DNA of 64,000 nt, from contig JAVBLB010000007.1 of NCBI GenBank assembly GCA_031553735.1, positions 30,348 through 94,347 on the forward strand, in the 5' to 3' direction. Source of the stretch: Candidatus Adiutrix sp. Its GTDB lineage: Bacteria; Desulfobacterota; Desulfarculia; Adiutricales; Adiutricaceae. This document shows positions 37,530 through 52,916 of the stretch, in pieces. The translations under genes were made by a program, and so were the position numbers. The stretch's first letter is position 1; the number at the start of each line of letters is the position of its first letter. The notes beneath the pieces are model-generated. The model worked only from the letters and a program-made list of their open reading frames with translations. It had not been told where the DNA came from and searched no databases.

Positions 37530-37691
37530 TTCATCCGGTCTTCTGGCTTACGGATCGACCGGCCGACCGGCCTTCCCGGGTCTAAACGACCCAGTGGCTG
37601 GCCTTTCCCCTTCAGGAAAAGCCGTCGGCGACCGTCCCCGTTCACAGCGGCGGGTCCGCCACGGAATTGCACCGTGTTCCGGGAGGATGAA
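37530..37691 (-). promoter_or_regulatory. cobalamin (B12) riboswitch aptamer
   Basis: In the mRNA sense: P1 TTCATCC...GGATGAA. Conserved core: CCCGGAA..GGTGCAATTCCGTGGCGGACCCGCCGCTGTGAACGGGGA..., AGCCACTGGG...CCCGGGAAGGC, and the B12 box AAGCCAGAAGACCGGA (consensus rAGYCMGgAgaCCkGCc). Confidence 0.85.
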
Positions 37692-46595: not shown

Positions 46596-48005
46596 TCAGT
46601 CGCCTTCGGCCTTCAAAGTTTTCTCCAACAGCGGATCGATATCGGGCCGCCGGTATTGCTCCAGATAGATATCCACCCTGATGCGGGCCAGGTCCACGGC
46701 CTGGGGGCGGCCCCTCCGCTTCCAGCGCCCGTACGAATCCCGGTTGAAGACCAGCGGGTCATGGAATTCCGTTCGGAAGCGTTTGAAAGTCAAAGGATGG
46801 TTCAGAAAGTTGCCCTTGGGCCCCACTTCCTTGATCGCCTCCAGGGCCAGATCGTCCTCGCCGCACCTGACAGGCCGCAGAAAATTATCCACATATTCGA
46901 TGAGTTCGGCGTCCAGAATCATTTTTTCCAGGCTGCCGCCCATGAAACTGCCCAGGTGGCCGCAGCCCGGCAAGAGATTCACCGGCTGGGCGGCGGCGCT
47001 GAAAAATTGCATCATCGCCTCGGCCCCGGCCTGAAAATCGACGACGGGCGAATCGGTATGGCTGACGTCGCCCCGCGACAAAAGGCCGTAATAACGCGCC
47101 AACTGGCAGCCGGCCAACTCCACCAGCCGGTTTTCCGGGCCACCGTAAACCGAGCCCAGGCTCTTCATGTCGCTGTGCCCGCCCATGGCGCCGTAAAACA
47201 CGGGGTGCCCCGGGGAGGCCAACTGGGACAGGACGATCGCCCCCAGATTCTCGCAATTCTGCATCAACACGGTCGCGGCCAGGGAACAGGGCGCGGTGCT
47301 GCCGGCGGCCGGCATCGAGGTGACGTTGAAGGCCACCCCCGCCCGGCAGAAGGCGACGAGATTGCGGGAGGCCTCTTCGGTCATATACAGAGGCGAAATG
47401 ACGTTGACCGACGATAGGCCGTAACTGCGCCCGATCAGGGCCGATTCCCGCATCTCTTCCGCCGTTTTGCCGAACGCCAGGCCCAGGAGCCGCACGTCGT
47501 CGGCGACCATCAGGTAATAAGGTTTATCCTGGTGGAGGATCTGGTTGGCCATCATCCAGGCGTGAACGCGCTTGGCTTTGATGTCCTGCGGCATGAACAG
47601 GGGACGGCAGAGCTTCATCTGCGGGAGAGCCTGCACCAGTTGGGCCGTCCGGATGAAATCCGCGGCGGTCGGCGCGGCCAGGCGCCCTTGATGATCGACC
47701 ACATAGACGGCCCCGCTGCCGGGAGCGATGACCCGGCTGTCGAGGGAAAAATCGACGTCGTGCTCCGGGTTCCGGGCCAGCAGGGTGAATTCGCTCGGCA
47801 CCGTCTCCAGGCATCTTTCAATGATGCGGTCGGTGAAATAGACCGTATCGCCCGAAGTTTTCAGCCCGTGGGCCTTGAAAACCGCCAGCGCCTCCGCCGA
47901 GCCGAAGGCCATCCCGGTTTCCCGGAGTATTTCCAGGCTGGCGGTGTGAATTCGCCCCAACTGTCTCGGGTCGAGCACGCCGGAGTGGCTGGCGAAAAAA
48001 CTCAT
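46596..48005 (-). CDS. MttB-superfamily (trimethylamine methyltransferase-like, non-pyrrolysine) methyltransferase
   Basis: 469 aa from the ATG at 48003-48005 (RBS GAAGGGGG). ..LDPRQLGRIHTASLEILRETGMAF.., ..PEHDVDFSLD.., ..NVISPLYMTEE... The ORF is uninterrupted with no in-frame TAG. Confidence 0.8.
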   Translation of the reverse strand: MSFFASHSGVLDPRQLGRIHTASLEILRETGMAFGSAEALAVFKAHGLKTSGDTVYFTDRIIERCLETVPSEFTLLARNPEHDVDFSLDSRVIAPGSGAVYVVDHQGRLAAPTAADFIRTAQLVQALPQMKLCRPLFMPQDIKAKRVHAWMMANQILHQDKPYYLMVADDVRLLGLAFGKTAEEMRESALIGRSYGLSSVNVISPLYMTEEASRNLVAFCRAGVAFNVTSMPAAGSTAPCSLAATVLMQNCENLGAIVLSQLASPGHPVFYGAMGGHSDMKSLGSVYGGPENRLVELAGCQLARYYGLLSRGDVSHTDSPVVDFQAGAEAMMQFFSAAAQPVNLLPGCGHLGSFMGGSLEKMILDAELIEYVDNFLRPVRCGEDDLALEAIKEVGPKGNFLNHPLTFKRFRTEFHDPLVFNRDSYGRWKRRGRPQAVDLARIRVDIYLEQYRRPDIDPLLEKTLKAEGD

Positions 48006-48082: not shown

Positions 48083-48269
48083 TTTAAATTCAGAATATTT
48101 TCAATTAATATCAAGTAGATACCTGTGCGGCCCGGCAAAAGAAAAACAAAAAGAAAACAAAACGAAAAATAATTTGCTCTTTTTTTTCGCTTTTGCTCAC
48201 GGTTGAAGTGACAAGAAGGCGGCGGATTGCTATAATCAGGCGGTCTCGATACGAAAAAGGCCATTTTTT

Positions 48270-49715
48270 ATGGATTCCGAAAAAACGATGATCCAAGCCG
48301 TGGTCGACGGGCCGGTCTCCCTGCGGGCTTTCTTTGAAAGCCTGCCGCAGGGCGTCGTCATTACCGACGCGGACCACCGGATTGTCTTCTGCAACCGGAG
48401 GCAATTGGAACGTGACGGTTTGGGCGAGGCGGAGGTTCTGGGGCGGTCGATATTCGACCTCCACCCGGGCGACGGCTGGCCGTCGGCGTTGTCGGCGCCC
48501 GCCGACGGGTCTTTCGGAGAACCCGCCCCGCGCACCTGGACCGGACGCGGCCGAAGCGGCCGGCCCATCGCCGTCTCCATCACCCGCATCCCCCTGCCGG
48601 GCGTCGGGGCCATCTATGTGATCGACGACCGGCCCAGGGCCGATTCGGCCGGGGAGGAAAAACGCCGCCAGGCTCCGAAAGAGGCGACGGGCGGGCGGGC
48701 GTTCAACAAGCTGATCGGGCGGAGTCCGGGGTTCCTGAAAGCGGTCGGCTTCGGGGAAAGCGCCGCCTCGTCCCCTTCGCCGGTGCTTTTGGCCGGGGAA
48801 ACGGGGACCGGCAAGGAGATGTTCGCCCGGGGCATCCATGAGCGGTCGCCCCGGGCCAACCGGAATTTCGTGGCCATCAACTGCGCGGCCATTCCCCAGG
48901 AACTCCTGGAAGGCCTGTTGTTCGGAACCACTCGGGGCGCCTACACCGGGGCCACTGAAAAGCCGGGACTCTTCGAAGAAGCCAACTTCGGCACCCTGTT
49001 TCTGGACGAATTGGATTCCATGCCCCTGAAGCTGCAACCCAAGCTCCTGCGGGTTCTTCAGGACCGCCGGATCAGGCGGGTCGGCTCGGCCCGCGAACTG
49101 GAACTCGACATAAAAATCATCAGCGCCATCAGCGGCTCGCCGGAAGAAGTCCTCAGGAGCGGACGGTTGAGGGCCGACCTCTTCTACCGCCTGGGAGTCA
49201 TGATCATCAAGCTGCCGCCGCTGAGGGAGCGGCCCGAGGACCTGCCGCTTCTGGTCGAACACTTCGCCGGCAAATATAACACCCTTCTGGGGCGCCGGGT
49301 GCGGGCCTTTTCCCCGGAAGTCATGGAGGCTTTCCAGGCCTATACCTGGCCGGGCAACGTCCGGGAGCTGGAGCACATCATCGAGGCCATTTTCAACATC
49401 GCGGACCGGGAGGAAGTGATCACGCCCAAGATGCTGCCCGACCACTTCAGCCTCTCGTCCAAAATAACCCTGGGCGGGCAAACGGCCGGGAGCCGCGACG
49501 AGAACCGCGATTTTCCGCCGGCGGACCCCGACGACCGCGGCGACCGGCCCGGCCTGGTCACCCTGAAAGACCGGGAGAGGGAGATGATCTCCCGGGCGCT
49601 GCTCATGACCGGCGGCAACGTGGCCCAGGCGGCCAAAATGCTGGATATTTCCCGGCAGCTTCTGGTCTACAAGATGAAAAAACACCAGTTGACCCGGGAG
49701 CATTTCAAGAAATGA
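48270..49715 (+). CDS. sigma-54 enhancer-binding protein with N-terminal PAS domain (GAYTGA variant)
   Basis: 481 aa. PAS-like N-terminus (..GVVITDADHRIVFCNRRQLERDG..), GETGTGKE, TRGAYTGA, TLFLDELDSM, WPGNVRELEH, and the HTH GNVAQAAKMLDISRQLLVYKMKKHQL. Confidence 0.85.
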   Translation: MDSEKTMIQAVVDGPVSLRAFFESLPQGVVITDADHRIVFCNRRQLERDGLGEAEVLGRSIFDLHPGDGWPSALSAPADGSFGEPAPRTWTGRGRSGRPIAVSITRIPLPGVGAIYVIDDRPRADSAGEEKRRQAPKEATGGRAFNKLIGRSPGFLKAVGFGESAASSPSPVLLAGETGTGKEMFARGIHERSPRANRNFVAINCAAIPQELLEGLLFGTTRGAYTGATEKPGLFEEANFGTLFLDELDSMPLKLQPKLLRVLQDRRIRRVGSARELELDIKIISAISGSPEEVLRSGRLRADLFYRLGVMIIKLPPLRERPEDLPLLVEHFAGKYNTLLGRRVRAFSPEVMEAFQAYTWPGNVRELEHIIEAIFNIADREEVITPKMLPDHFSLSSKITLGGQTAGSRDENRDFPPADPDDRGDRPGLVTLKDREREMISRALLMTGGNVAQAAKMLDISRQLLVYKMKKHQLTREHFKK

Positions 49716-49799
49716 CGGCGCCTTCGGCGCCGCGCCGACCGGGCCTCCGGCTCTGGGTCAGTCACTTTCAACAGACCGAACCGATACGGCGGGAACCGC

Positions 49800-50141
49800 A
49801 TGAAACACAAAAACCTTTTGATCGCCACACTGGCCCTGGGCTTCATGCTCGCCCCGCCTTCCATCGGCACCGCCTCCATGGAATGCTTCCGCCATCAGCA
49901 GCCCGACACGGTGGTCTGCCCGCCGCCGAACGGCGAGATCATCGCGTATACGGAAGGGGATTATGCCTGCGGCACCGGCTGGTGCGTGGCCGATGCGCAT
50001 GGCAACGTCAAGTGCTCGAGGGTGCCCGGCGGGGCGGCGATCGTGGATCAGCGCGGCAACGCCCTGTGCGTCGGCGGCTGCATGGATCCCAGCCCGTCGC
50101 TGTGCCGGACCATAGAACGGCCCAACAAGAAATCCAGATAA
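49800..50141 (+). CDS. secreted 8-cysteine small protein, paralog 1
   Basis: 113 aa with a Sec-type signal peptide (MKHKNLLIATLALGFMLAPPSIGTAS). The mature part shares 8 aligned Cys and motifs (C.PP.G, CG.G.CV, PGG.A..D.RG..LCV.GC, SLC) with the next two ORFs. Confidence 0.7.
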   Translation: MKHKNLLIATLALGFMLAPPSIGTASMECFRHQQPDTVVCPPPNGEIIAYTEGDYACGTGWCVADAHGNVKCSRVPGGAAIVDQRGNALCVGGCMDPSPSLCRTIERPNKKSR

Positions 50142-50155
50142 TACGGAGAGGGACG

Positions 50156-50497
50156 ATGAACCTGAATAGAGCCTGGATGACGGCGGCCGCTTTGGGGGCC
50201 CTCACTTTTTTGTTCGCTCCGGTCTGCCTGGCCCAGTTCCAGTGCGAGCAGAAGACCGACGCGCGCAACACCATCATCTGCGCGCCGCCCCAGGGCGACC
50301 TGGTCAGGAACAGAAGCGGAAAATACGTCTGCGGCCCGGGGCAATGCGTCGTGAACAGCTCTTCGGGCGAGGTCATTTGTTCCGCCGCGCCCGGGGGGCT
50401 CGCGGCCCTGGATTCGCGCGGCGAGGGGCTGTGCGTCGAAGGCTGCGTGGCGGCCAGTGAATCGCTCTGCGTGACCCCGGTCCCCGATCCGTCTTAA
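50156..50497 (+). CDS. secreted 8-cysteine small protein, paralog 2
   Basis: 113 aa from the ATG at 50156 (RBS GGAGAGGG), embedded in the longer track ORF 49712..50497. Signal peptide MNLNRAWMTAAALGALTFLFAPVCLA. Same 8-Cys pattern. Confidence 0.7.
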   Translation: MNLNRAWMTAAALGALTFLFAPVCLAQFQCEQKTDARNTIICAPPQGDLVRNRSGKYVCGPGQCVVNSSSGEVICSAAPGGLAALDSRGEGLCVEGCVAASESLCVTPVPDPS

Positions 50498-50516
50498 AAA
50501 CCATAGGGAGGAGAGC

Positions 50517-50852
50517 ATGAGATTACCGGTTTTTTTCGCCTGTTTCGCCGTGGGCCTGGGGGCGCTCTTGACGCCGACTCTCTCCTGGGCCGGGCCCATC
50601 GCGCCCAAGTGCCTCTGGGCGATCGGCATGGGTCAGGTGAAATGCGCTCCGCCGTTCGGGGATATCATCCAGGACGTAAATACGGGAAAATTTCTCTGCG
50701 GCGTGGGGCAGTGCGTCATCAATCCGGCGGGCATGATCAGGTGTTCGTCCGTGGTCGGGGGGGCGGCGGTCATCGATTCGCGCAATCGGGCGGCCTGCGT
50801 GGGGGGATGCCGGGCGCCCGAAGAATCACTCTGCGTCATTCCCAGGCCGTAG
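50517..50852 (+). CDS. secreted 8-cysteine small protein, paralog 3
   Basis: 111 aa. RBS GGGAGGAGAG. Signal peptide MRLPVFFACFAVGLGALLTPTLSWA. Same 8-Cys pattern. Confidence 0.7.
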   Translation: MRLPVFFACFAVGLGALLTPTLSWAGPIAPKCLWAIGMGQVKCAPPFGDIIQDVNTGKFLCGVGQCVINPAGMIRCSSVVGGAAVIDSRNRAACVGGCRAPEESLCVIPRP

Positions 50853-50967: not shown

Positions 50968-51050
50968 ACTGATGGTCCCGGCCACCCAAATGTTGCGGCC
51001 ACTGAAATCCAGCGAAGCGGGTGCGGAATTGGGTCCAGGGCTCAGCCCTG
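50968..51050 (+). repeat. intergenic repeat family D, copy flanking the MCP gene (3' side of the gene)
   Basis: CTGATGGTCCCGGCCACCCAAATGTTGCGGCC...GAGCGGGTGCGG..GGGTCCAGGGCTCAGCCCTGG. It aligns with 53040-53146 and contains the MCP stop codon. Confidence 0.65.
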
Positions 51051-52916
51051 GCGGGGCGGCCCGGCGGCGGCTCGCCGGTTCTCCCGGTCCAGCCGCCGGG
51101 CTTCCTCAGGACTGTAGACCATGGCGCTCAGTTGGTCGACCGTCTCCACCAGGTCCTCGGCCTGGCCGGCCAGGGCGGACGAGGCCCCGGCCGCCTGGCT
51201 GGCGGCGGTCAGGTTGTCCTGGGTCACCCGGTCCATTTCCGACATGGAGCGGCTGATCTGGGCGATGCCCTGGGCCTGCTCGCGGGAGGCTTCGGCCACC
51301 GCGTTCAGCAAGGTCCCGGCCTCCCCCACCCCGCGGCCGACCTGGTCGAAGCTCTCCCCGGTCTGGCGCACCAGTTCGGCCCCGGAATTGATGTTCTGAA
51401 TGGTGCCGGCGATGAGGCCGGCGGTGTTCTTGGCGGCCTCGGCCGAGCGGATGGCCAGATTGCGCACCTCGTCGGCCACCACGGCGAAGCCGGCCCCGGC
51501 TTCCCCAGCCCGGGCGGCCTCCACGGCCGCGTTCAGGGCCAAGAGGTTGGTCTGGAAGGCGATTTCATCGATAGTCTTGATGATTTTACCGATTTCCCGG
51601 CCCGAAGCCGAAATTTCGTCCATGGCCCGGATGACCCGGGACATCGAGTCGGCGGCCGTGGTGACCTCTTCCCGGGCCGACCGCATCAGGCCGTCGGCCC
51701 GGCCGGCGTTTTCCGAATTGCGGGTGGTCATGGCCGAGAGTTCCTCAAGGGCCGAAGCGATGTCCTGAAGGCTGGCCGCGTTTTGGGAGGCCCCGTGGGA
51801 CAGGGTGCCGGCGGCCTCGGCCAACAGGCCGGCGTTCGATTCCACATAACCGGCCCCGGCGGAAATGCGGCCGATGGCCCGCTTGATGGAGCCGGTGATG
51901 CCTCGGCTGATGAAGAAGGCCCCCAAAAGGCCGGCGACCAGGGTCAGCCCCAGGCCGATGAAGGAGGCGGCCAGCGCCGAGGCCACGTTGTGCCGGGTCT
52001 GGTCGGCGCCGTCGGCGCTGATGCGGCCGGCCAGGGTGGCCAGGCGGGTCAAATCCTGACTGACGGCCCGCATTAATTCGCGGCTGCTCTCCTCCCCCGC
52101 GCTCCGCGCTTCCCAGGCCCGGATGAACGCCTCCAGGGCCTCCCGAATTATCGGCAGCCGGGCCGCCAGTTCGCGCCCGGCGGCGGCCACCTCCGGCGGC
52201 AGGGCCGGTTCGGCCAGCAGCCGATCCAACTCGGCCGCCGAAGCCGAAATCAATTCGACGGAACCCCGGATCACCATCAGATCGCGACCGGCCTGACCCT
52301 GCCAGAACGTGAGGTTGGCGGCCTCATACTTGTCCCACAGGGAGTTGGACAGCTCGGTATAGCGGTCCCTGAGGTCCCGGGCGGCCTGGTCGTCGCCCTG
52401 GATCCGGGGCAGTTCGGCCTGGATCATATCGAAAAAAGGGTAAAGGTGATCCTGAAAGACCTGATCCCGCAACTGGCTGAAGCCGGCCCGGGCGGCCCGA
52501 ACATCGGCCTGGTTCTTTTCCATGGCCCCGCTCTGGTTTTGGGCCTCGGCCACCCGTTGGCGGATGGCCAGGACCAGGTTTTCAATCTCCGGCCGGTCCG
52601 GCCCGCCATATTCGGCCAGGTTGTCGACGATGGCCTGGAGCTTTTCGTCCACCTGGGGCAGATAACCCCGGGCCGATTTCAGGTAGGAGTCCTCCTCGGT
52701 CAGGCTGTAGCCGCGCAGTTCCAGCGACATGTTCAGGAGGGCCCGTTCCAGGGCGGCGGACTCATTGGCCAGGGGCATGGCGTCCCGGGACAGGATCTCC
52801 GAATGCCGGTTGATGGAGAATAAGAGCGTGGTCAAAAAGCCGACCAGAACCATGAGAATGACGATCAGGGCCAGGTAGCCCAGCGAGATTTTCGTGCCGA
52901 TTTTCAGGCCGCCCAT
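51042..52916 (-). CDS. methyl-accepting chemotaxis protein
   Basis: 624 aa. An N-terminal TM, a helical periplasmic sensor, a second TM and HAMP. Highly conserved signalling hairpin (..[40 protein letters not shown]..). Confidence 0.92.

Follow-up and report, generated by a model that had tools for sequence, protein, structure and literature searches.

A three-gene cassette of putatively exported, cysteine-rich repeat mini-proteins in Candidatus Adiutrix gut bacteria

Positions 49800 to 50852 of a 64,000-nucleotide stretch of DNA from Candidatus Adiutrix sp. (assembly GCA_031553735.1, contig JAVBLB010000007.1, positions 30,348 to 94,347 of the forward strand; hereafter the window) carry three small genes, here named A, B and C, whose products share eight cysteines in register. 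A, B and C are real genes under purifying selection, and they are three anciently separated orthologous subtypes. Judged by the sequence libraries searched, the family and its domain are undescribed and without detectable relative, and in that sense categorically new. We regard it as an evenly balanced prospect that the products are co-transcribed, Sec-exported mini-proteins built of disulfide-stapled hairpin repeats, that they have a non-enzymatic binding or scaffolding role and act jointly, probably as a hetero-oligomer, and that the cassette forms its own transcription unit. This proposal starts from the genes, their family membership, repeat architecture and cysteine covariation, the orthology and synteny of the subtypes, and the lack of known relatives and of a sigma-54 promoter; from there we infer that the products are exported, how their disulfides are arranged, that they bind without being enzymes and that they assemble as a hetero-oligomer.

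The three genes

As an earlier sequence-only reading of this DNA had described, the region consists of three consecutive open reading frames (ORFs) of 113, 113 and 111 amino acids (aa), all on the plus strand. The gaps between them are 14 nucleotides (nt; A-B) and 19 nt (B-C). The genes and their translation signals are as follows:

49800..50141, plus strand: gene A, 113 aa, A-type subunit
50145..50153, plus strand: Shine-Dalgarno-like GGAGAGGGA, 2 nt ahead of the gene B ATG
50156..50497, plus strand: gene B, 113 aa, B-type subunit
50505..50513, plus strand: Shine-Dalgarno-like AGGGAGGAG, 3 nt ahead of the gene C ATG
50517..50852, plus strand: gene C, 111 aa, C-type subunit

A ribosome-binding site had been assigned to each frame. 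The sites of B and C are strong, whereas gene A is preceded only by the purine-rich GGCGGGAA, a weak ribosome-binding site. A longer, 261-aa ORF at 49712-50497 is merely an upstream open extension of the gene B frame. Alignment of the three paralogues gives pairwise identities of 39-44%.

Close homologues were sought among 5.8 billion proteins by a word-indexed search with a profile of the three sequences, which returned only 27 other proteins. These are unnamed, about 105-135 aa long and without Pfam domains, and all 27 keep the eight cysteines that align in A, B and C, so that the claim of eight invariant cysteines is borne out in homologues. The ratio of nonsynonymous to synonymous substitution (dN/dS) between orthologues is 0.10-0.64 in all computable pairs. 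Because the homologues keep all eight cysteines and the orthologues show these ratios, A, B and C can be taken as real, constrained genes; spurious GC-rich ORFs are ruled out by the same purifying selection and conservation.

Three subtypes in a conserved cassette

The close homologues fall into three types corresponding to A, B and C. Compared across loci, members of one type share on average 59.7% identity and members of different types 40.6%, and the residues conserved in a type-specific manner lie mainly in the first hairpin and the tail:

A-type: CF/V-x-D…PD…CPPP(N/D)G…GWC…DQ-x-G, with a basic C-terminal tail (C-R-x-I/L-x-x-P...)
B-type: F(Q/H)C-x-Q-x2-D-x2-N in the first hairpin, then …ICAPP…YVCGPG…CVTP(V/I)PD, with the tail CVTP(V/I)PDPS
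C-type: PKC-x-W…M…CAPPFGDI…NRAACVGGC, with a short CV-x-P-x-P end

Exactly one gene of each type occurs, in the order A-B-C and with gaps of 2-183 nt, at five independent loci, namely the window and four further loci whose neighbourhoods were recorded (L001, L003, L004/L005 and L012/L013). The flanking genes are different at each:

Window: a sigma-54 activator of the enhancer-binding protein (EBP) class and a methyl-accepting chemotaxis protein (MCP)
L001: WaaY-like kinases and EutH
L003: a polyketide synthase (PKS), an esterase and an epimerase on one side, TonB-ExbBD on the other
L004: ROK and PGM
L012: a TRAP transporter

The fixed order and the orthology of the subtypes at five loci indicate that the triplication is older than these lineages and that all three copies have been retained together. 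Consequently, the tandem triplication proposed from the sequence stands as far as three tandem paralogues are concerned, but a recent local duplication is excluded by the old subtypes shared across loci. L003 lies on a Candidatus Adiutrix sp. metagenome-assembled genome (MAG; JAVBQN010000015.1, 1-10893), where a multidomain PKS resembling polyunsaturated fatty acid synthases, a GDSL esterase and an epimerase precede the cassette on the same strand and TonB-ExbD-ExbB follow on the other; this arrangement is not kept at the other cassette loci.

The window DNA was found in an invertebrate gut metagenome, and the RpoD encoded by it shares 82-91% identity with that of Candidatus Adiutrix MAGs. A pattern-based scan of 185,579 species-representative genomes with the C-type motif gave one match, again a Candidatus Adiutrix sp. 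MAG, and a search of JGI metagenomes with the C-type alignment found no further cassette loci. The A-B-C cassette apparently occurs only in the Adiutrix lineage, which lives in the guts of termites and cockroaches.

The wider family and its 33-residue module

To collect more distant relatives, a profile of the mature domain was run with HMMER exhaustively against 1.84 billion representatives. It recovered 534 proteins at E <= 1e-3, counted as clusters at 50% identity, of which 314 reach E <= 1e-10. A second, indexed search gave 182 clusters at E <= 1e-5, all of them 'hypothetical' or unnamed; the few organism labels among them are Casimicrobiaceae, Gammaproteobacteria and Pseudomonadota MAGs. 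The cluster names of ten relatives examined individually were uninformative. Wider-family members from soil and water Proteobacteria are lone genes in unrelated neighbourhoods.

The relatives reveal the unit from which these proteins are built, a 33-residue module of the form C-x2-(D/N)-x-x-G-x-V-x-C-x3-PGGGA-x2-(D/N)-x-x-G-x-V-x-(C/T)-G-x-G-x. Individual proteins carry two, three or four copies, many match the profile two to three times each, and those with three or four copies repeat exactly every 33 residues. A, B and C represent the two-module form with a C-terminal cap. An internal two-module repeat had been proposed from the three sequences, and comparison of the N-terminal and C-terminal halves of the domain with hhalign recovers it in the same register (P = 3.4e-4 over 23 columns). 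The repeat is real, as the halves match each other and relatives carry two to four copies of the module. A D-x-(Y/F/W)-G-x-V motif is conserved at every hairpin turn across the wider family, and this regular aromatic motif has largely been lost in the cassette proteins. The commonest wider-family form (e.g., P0177, P0178, P0189 and P0260) has ten cysteines and D-x-Y-G-x-V-x-C at each turn, such that the conserved tyrosines would form a row.

The sequence-only reading could place the cysteine pattern in no family, and the library searches agree. A, B and C matched no family at E <= 1 in Pfam-A, PHROGs or PADLOC, and NCBIfam/TIGRFAM returned a single line at E = 0.25, its 11.5 bits lying far below the cutoff of 118. 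In Pfam, ten wider-family members likewise had no real match, and a keyword literature search produced nothing relevant to the family.

Cysteines and the question of disulfides or metal

The cysteines lie at the following positions, as aligned:

Gene A: aa 29, 40, 57, 62, 72, 90, 94 and 102
Gene B, mature part: aa 30, 42, 59, 64, 75, 93, 97 and 105

These eight cysteines are also invariant in 93 full-length wider-family matches. Whether they form a disulfide-rich domain or bind metal had been left open. One alternative to disulfides is that they coordinate Zn, Fe or Cu in one or two centres, in the manner of rubredoxin or metallothionein, within a periplasmic metal-binding or redox protein, as might suit an anaerobic host from a reduced gut and the CxxxC and CxxxxC spacings that are present. 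The way in which cysteines vary across the family points in the other direction. Among 173 members, Cys3 (the first cysteine of CGxGxC) and Cys8 (in the tail) are both present in 157, both absent from 16 and never found singly. In the forms that lack this pair, and in the three- and four-module relatives, the remaining cysteines are exactly the C-x9-C hairpin pairs and a terminal CxGGC. Furthermore, the A-type subunit of L012 (P0055, 3733-4083) has an eight-residue insertion in hairpin 2 that adds two cysteines, for a total of ten, and each extra module brings just one C-x9-C pair as module number rises from two to four. Thus cysteines are gained and lost in pairs and not in fours, contrary to what metal centres would lead one to expect.

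Two further observations weigh against metal. Of 281 members, 260 have an even number of mature cysteines (8 or 10), the others being explained mostly by a cysteine in the signal peptide, and no His, Asp or Met ligand is conserved in the close homologues. In addition, predicted hairpins are bracketed at either end by the C-x9/10-C pairs. Four disulfides are favoured over a metal site because Cys3 and Cys8 always co-occur, the counts are even and no ligand is conserved, and the metal-centre alternative is considered quite unlikely. Of the two options first raised, a disulfide-rich domain is therefore preferred and metal binding is disfavoured. Covariation and spacing suggest that the bonds would be Cys1-Cys2 and Cys4-Cys5 (the C-x9/10-C hairpins), Cys6-Cys7 (within CxGGC) and Cys3-Cys8 (joining the tail to hairpin 2). 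In A these would correspond to C29-C40, C62-C72, C90-C94 and C57-C102, respectively.

Predicted structure and comparison with known folds

An AlphaFold2 model of mature A, built from 27 sequences, has a mean predicted local distance difference test score (pLDDT) of 91.6, a predicted template modelling score (pTM) of 0.76 and eight short strands, and it can be read as four hairpins followed by a C-terminal strand. The model of a three-module relative (pLDDT 95.1) has 13 strands with a 33-aa period. Searching the PDB with the family profile (hmmsearch) gave no match at E <= 10. Foldseek searches of the PDB, a method that is weak on small disulfide-rich domains, gave a best E of 0.6 with template modelling scores (TM) of at most 0.28 for mature A, and a best E of 0.09 with TMq of at most 0.41 for the three-module relative. 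The top non-significant matches were designed propellers, DUF903 proteins, single-stranded DNA-binding proteins, follistatin and choline-binding domains. The predicted fold is probably new relative to the structures in the PDB. With all members unnamed or hypothetical, a confident predicted structure and no PDB relative, the wider family merits a Pfam/InterPro entry and an experimental structure.

Several known systems resemble the models in part. Propeller blades, represented by designed propellers (Cake, Bagel, Scone) and PQQ-repeat proteins, are the best Foldseek matches of the three-module relative and share its repeated antiparallel beta-meanders. They are no real fold match (E >= 0.09, TMq 0.29-0.41, rmsd > 7 Å); propellers are also without the disulfides, and the family has far too few strands to form one. 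The DUF903 (YgdI/YgdR) lipoproteins, several chains of which are among the top matches, are likewise small, exported, all-beta bacterial proteins, but they are SH3-like barrels without the cysteine pattern, and A, B and C have no Pfam match. Granulin/epithelin and follistatin-type domains are small secreted domains made nearly entirely of consecutive beta-hairpins with several disulfides. Follistatin chains appear low in the Foldseek list and are not significant (E 1.2-3.5, TM 0.17-0.19), with no detectable homology. The cysteine spacing also differs from that of granulin and follistatin, with no CC doublets but C-x9/10-C, C-x4-C and C-x3-C, and the present family is bacterial.

A further parallel is offered by the CW_binding_1-type repeats of the LytA C-terminal domain, the glucan-binding domain of glucansucrases and the CROPs of clostridial toxins, which are non-enzymatic binding modules of variable copy number. 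Similar to the wider family, these choline- and glucan-binding 'YG' repeats are extracytoplasmic tandem short beta-hairpins with an aromatic-Gly turn. This likeness raises the possibility that A, B and C are carbohydrate- or envelope-polymer-binding hairpin repeats that act independently on different ligands, with no complex being formed. The D-x-(Y/F/W)-G-x-V turns of the wider family recall the aromatic-Gly repeats of cell-wall and glucan-binding domains, choline-binding, glucansucrase and RHS repeats occur among the non-significant Foldseek matches, and single-gene relatives show that the domain works alone. The detailed comparison is less favourable. Neither the cassette proteins nor the wider family match CW_binding_1 by sequence or profile (Pfam PF01473, a repeat of about 20 aa that forms a beta-beta-solenoid), and choline- and glucan-binding domains align to the models only with Foldseek E > 2 (2.4-4.1) and TM < 0.2 (0.17-0.19). 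The unit here is 33 aa long, comprises two hairpins and is predicted to be stapled by disulfides, which CW repeats do not have, and the cassette proteins are without the regular aromatic motif typical of those repeats. Additionally, the strict co-retention of three subtypes is better explained by joint action. Independent polymer binding is consequently judged unlikely.

Predicted export signals

The N-termini of A, B and C each show a K/R-containing region, a hydrophobic core and a small-x-small site (n-h-c layout), the last lying a few residues ahead of the first conserved cysteine. The putative signal peptides, as read from this layout, are:

Gene A: about aa 1-25/26, cleaved between GTA and S or between TAS and M
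Gene B: about aa 1-26, cleaved between VCLA (…CLA) and Q
Gene C: about aa 1-25, cleaved between SWA and G

A home-made signal-peptide heuristic, distinct from SignalP, accepted all three N-termini as well as those of 155 out of 171 family members, in agreement with the Sec-type signal peptides first proposed. By this heuristic the three proteins have the features of Sec/signal peptidase I substrates (n-h-c layout, small residues at -1/-3 and no lipobox), which suggests that they are exported. B and C each have one extra cysteine, located inside the signal peptide. The possibility that the gene B product is a lipoprotein was rejected, since the APVC cysteine close to the predicted cleavage site does not make a lipobox, and B orthologues do not retain it. 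A wider-family member, P0069, has a lipobox-like LAGC, and some relatives may be lipoproteins.

Proposed role

The features described above suggest the following course of events. A, B and C would be co-transcribed in a gut bacterium of the Candidatus Adiutrix clade and exported by Sec. Following removal of the signal peptide, each would form, in the periplasm or outside it, a rigid all-beta domain of four consecutive beta-hairpins (two 33-residue, two-hairpin modules) and a C-terminal cap strand, stapled by four disulfides. Invariance is confined to Cys, Gly, Pro, Ser and Val; because these are structural only, the proteins are not thought to be enzymes and may instead bind or scaffold. Joint action is proposed because three diverged subtypes with their own conserved surface signatures are invariably retained side by side, in one order and with tight spacing. 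Co-occurrence, gene order and the type-specific residues suggest that the three would most likely form a hetero-oligomeric extracytoplasmic assembly. The cassette would be a unit of its own and no target of the upstream sigma-54 activator.

A different use for small, exported, disulfide-rich products of a tandem paralogue array would be a Sec-exported multi-peptide bacteriocin or antimicrobial (or a toxin with its partner) serving competition in the insect gut. A self-contained cassette in varied genomic neighbourhoods and a distribution limited to gut relatives of Adiutrix would both fit this idea. Bacteriocin loci would be expected to bring companions, but no immunity, ABC exporter or processing gene is conserved beside the cassette at the five loci, and there is no PADLOC or PHROGs match and no bacteriocin family in Pfam or NCBIfam. 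The subunits show purifying selection and none of the diversification that usually marks conflict genes, and the wider-family relatives are the lone genes of soil and water Proteobacteria mentioned above. A bacteriocin is thus rather improbable.

Several points weigh against the jointly acting, exported assembly proposed here. The case for export comes from a heuristic and not from SignalP or experiment, and the disulfide map from covariation and spacing. The 16 proteins that lack Cys3 and Cys8 may make up one clade, in which case they would count as just one evolutionary event. The host lives as a strict anaerobe in a reduced gut. Wider-family members are single genes, which implies that the domain can work alone and that each of the three paralogues might just have a target of its own. 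Finally, no cassette contig was found at >=97% identity in two metatranscriptomes, the contigs of which show presence and not absence.

A bolder version of this proposal is tentative and, on balance, doubtful. It holds that the 33-residue, disulfide-closed double hairpin is an undescribed bacterial domain and fold (about 500 clusters at 50% identity) and that, in Adiutrix relatives, three specialised paralogues form an obligate extracytoplasmic heterotrimer with a new, host- or community-facing binding function. If true, the heterotrimer could recognise, for example, a gut polymer, a partner cell or the surface of a flagellate host. The family offers a tractable small system for studying the folding and targets of variable-copy, disulfide-stapled hairpin repeats, and in the A-B-C trio an uncultured group of symbionts has a candidate extracellular trait.

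The upstream sigma-54 activator and transcription of the cassette

The features upstream of the cassette that bear on its transcription are:

48082-48067, minus strand: sigma-54 -24/-12 element TGGTATGCCGCTTGCA (TGGTAT-N5-TTGCA)
48208-48236, plus strand: near-consensus sigma-70 promoter GTGACA-17-TATAAT with an extended -10 TG, before the EBP gene
48270-49715, plus strand: EBP gene (PAS, Sigma54_activat and HTH_8 domains), ending 84 nt before gene A
49716..49732, plus strand: GC-rich hairpin CGGCGCC-UUC-GGCGCCG, directly after the EBP stop, without a T-run

The EBP gene was noted at the outset as the context of the cassette, and its position on the same strand just 84 nt away invites the idea that A, B and C are its regulated output, either co-transcribed with it or expressed from a sigma-54 promoter. 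The intergenic hairpin, having no T-run, could permit read-through. A sigma-54 link was sought as a -24/-12 element (TGGCAC-N5-TTGCW) upstream of the first gene together with a conserved EBP neighbour. The strict pattern has no match near the cassette, and a weighted -24/-12 scan of the 300 nt upstream of gene A gave only background-level scores in the window and at the four other loci. A loose GG-N10-GC scan was discarded as uninformative, as its 1473 matches are what chance predicts. None of the other four cassette loci has an EBP neighbour, the adjacency being seen only in the window. Among the metatranscriptome contigs of the same study there are exact matches to the EBP 5' region, to the MttB gene and to the MCP, and none to the cassette at >=97% identity.

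The strong element TGGTATGCCGCTTGCA instead precedes the divergent gene of an MttB-family methyltransferase and lies some 60 nt upstream of the likely true start of that gene (48005, preceded by GAAGGGGG). It is most likely, judging by this promoter arrangement, that the PAS-EBP controls the divergent MttB operon, and the activator is probably unrelated to the cassette. Regulation of A, B and C by the EBP is accordingly very unlikely; the activator and its position stand, and the functional link is not supported. The MttB gene occupies 46596-48005 (minus strand), its listed ORF start at 48083 probably being 26 codons too long. Three ORFs lie downstream of it, one of 250 aa, one resembling Met_synt_B12 and one that is hydantoinase-like and possibly serves corrinoid activation. 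The cobalamin riboswitch at 37538-37680 (minus strand; Rfam RF00174, 79.7 bits) fits the corrinoid-dependent methyltransferase genes of the window.

A metatranscriptome contig (run X2) begins at 48254, consistent with a start site just downstream of the EBP promoter. The hairpin at 49716..49732 possibly marks the boundary between the EBP and cassette transcripts, a weak indication as the whole intergenic fold is no better than that of shuffled sequence. No Rfam or tRNA elements occur near the cassette. At other loci, L001 has a promoter-like site (TTGACT-N18-TATAAT) upstream of the cassette, and L003 and L004 have a hairpin with a T-run downstream. These sites, together with the differing flanks, are the reason for viewing the cassette as a self-contained transcription unit.

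Other features of the window

The MCP gene (51042-52916, minus strand) is convergent with the cassette, and contig depth over its conserved signalling domain (51274-51707) reaches several thousand in both DNA and RNA runs. With an identity threshold of 90%, this spike almost certainly reflects the cross-mapping of sequences that belong to many MCP paralogues and species. The window begins with a direct repeat (1-194 and 659-852; 194 nt, 85% identity, 658 nt spacing).

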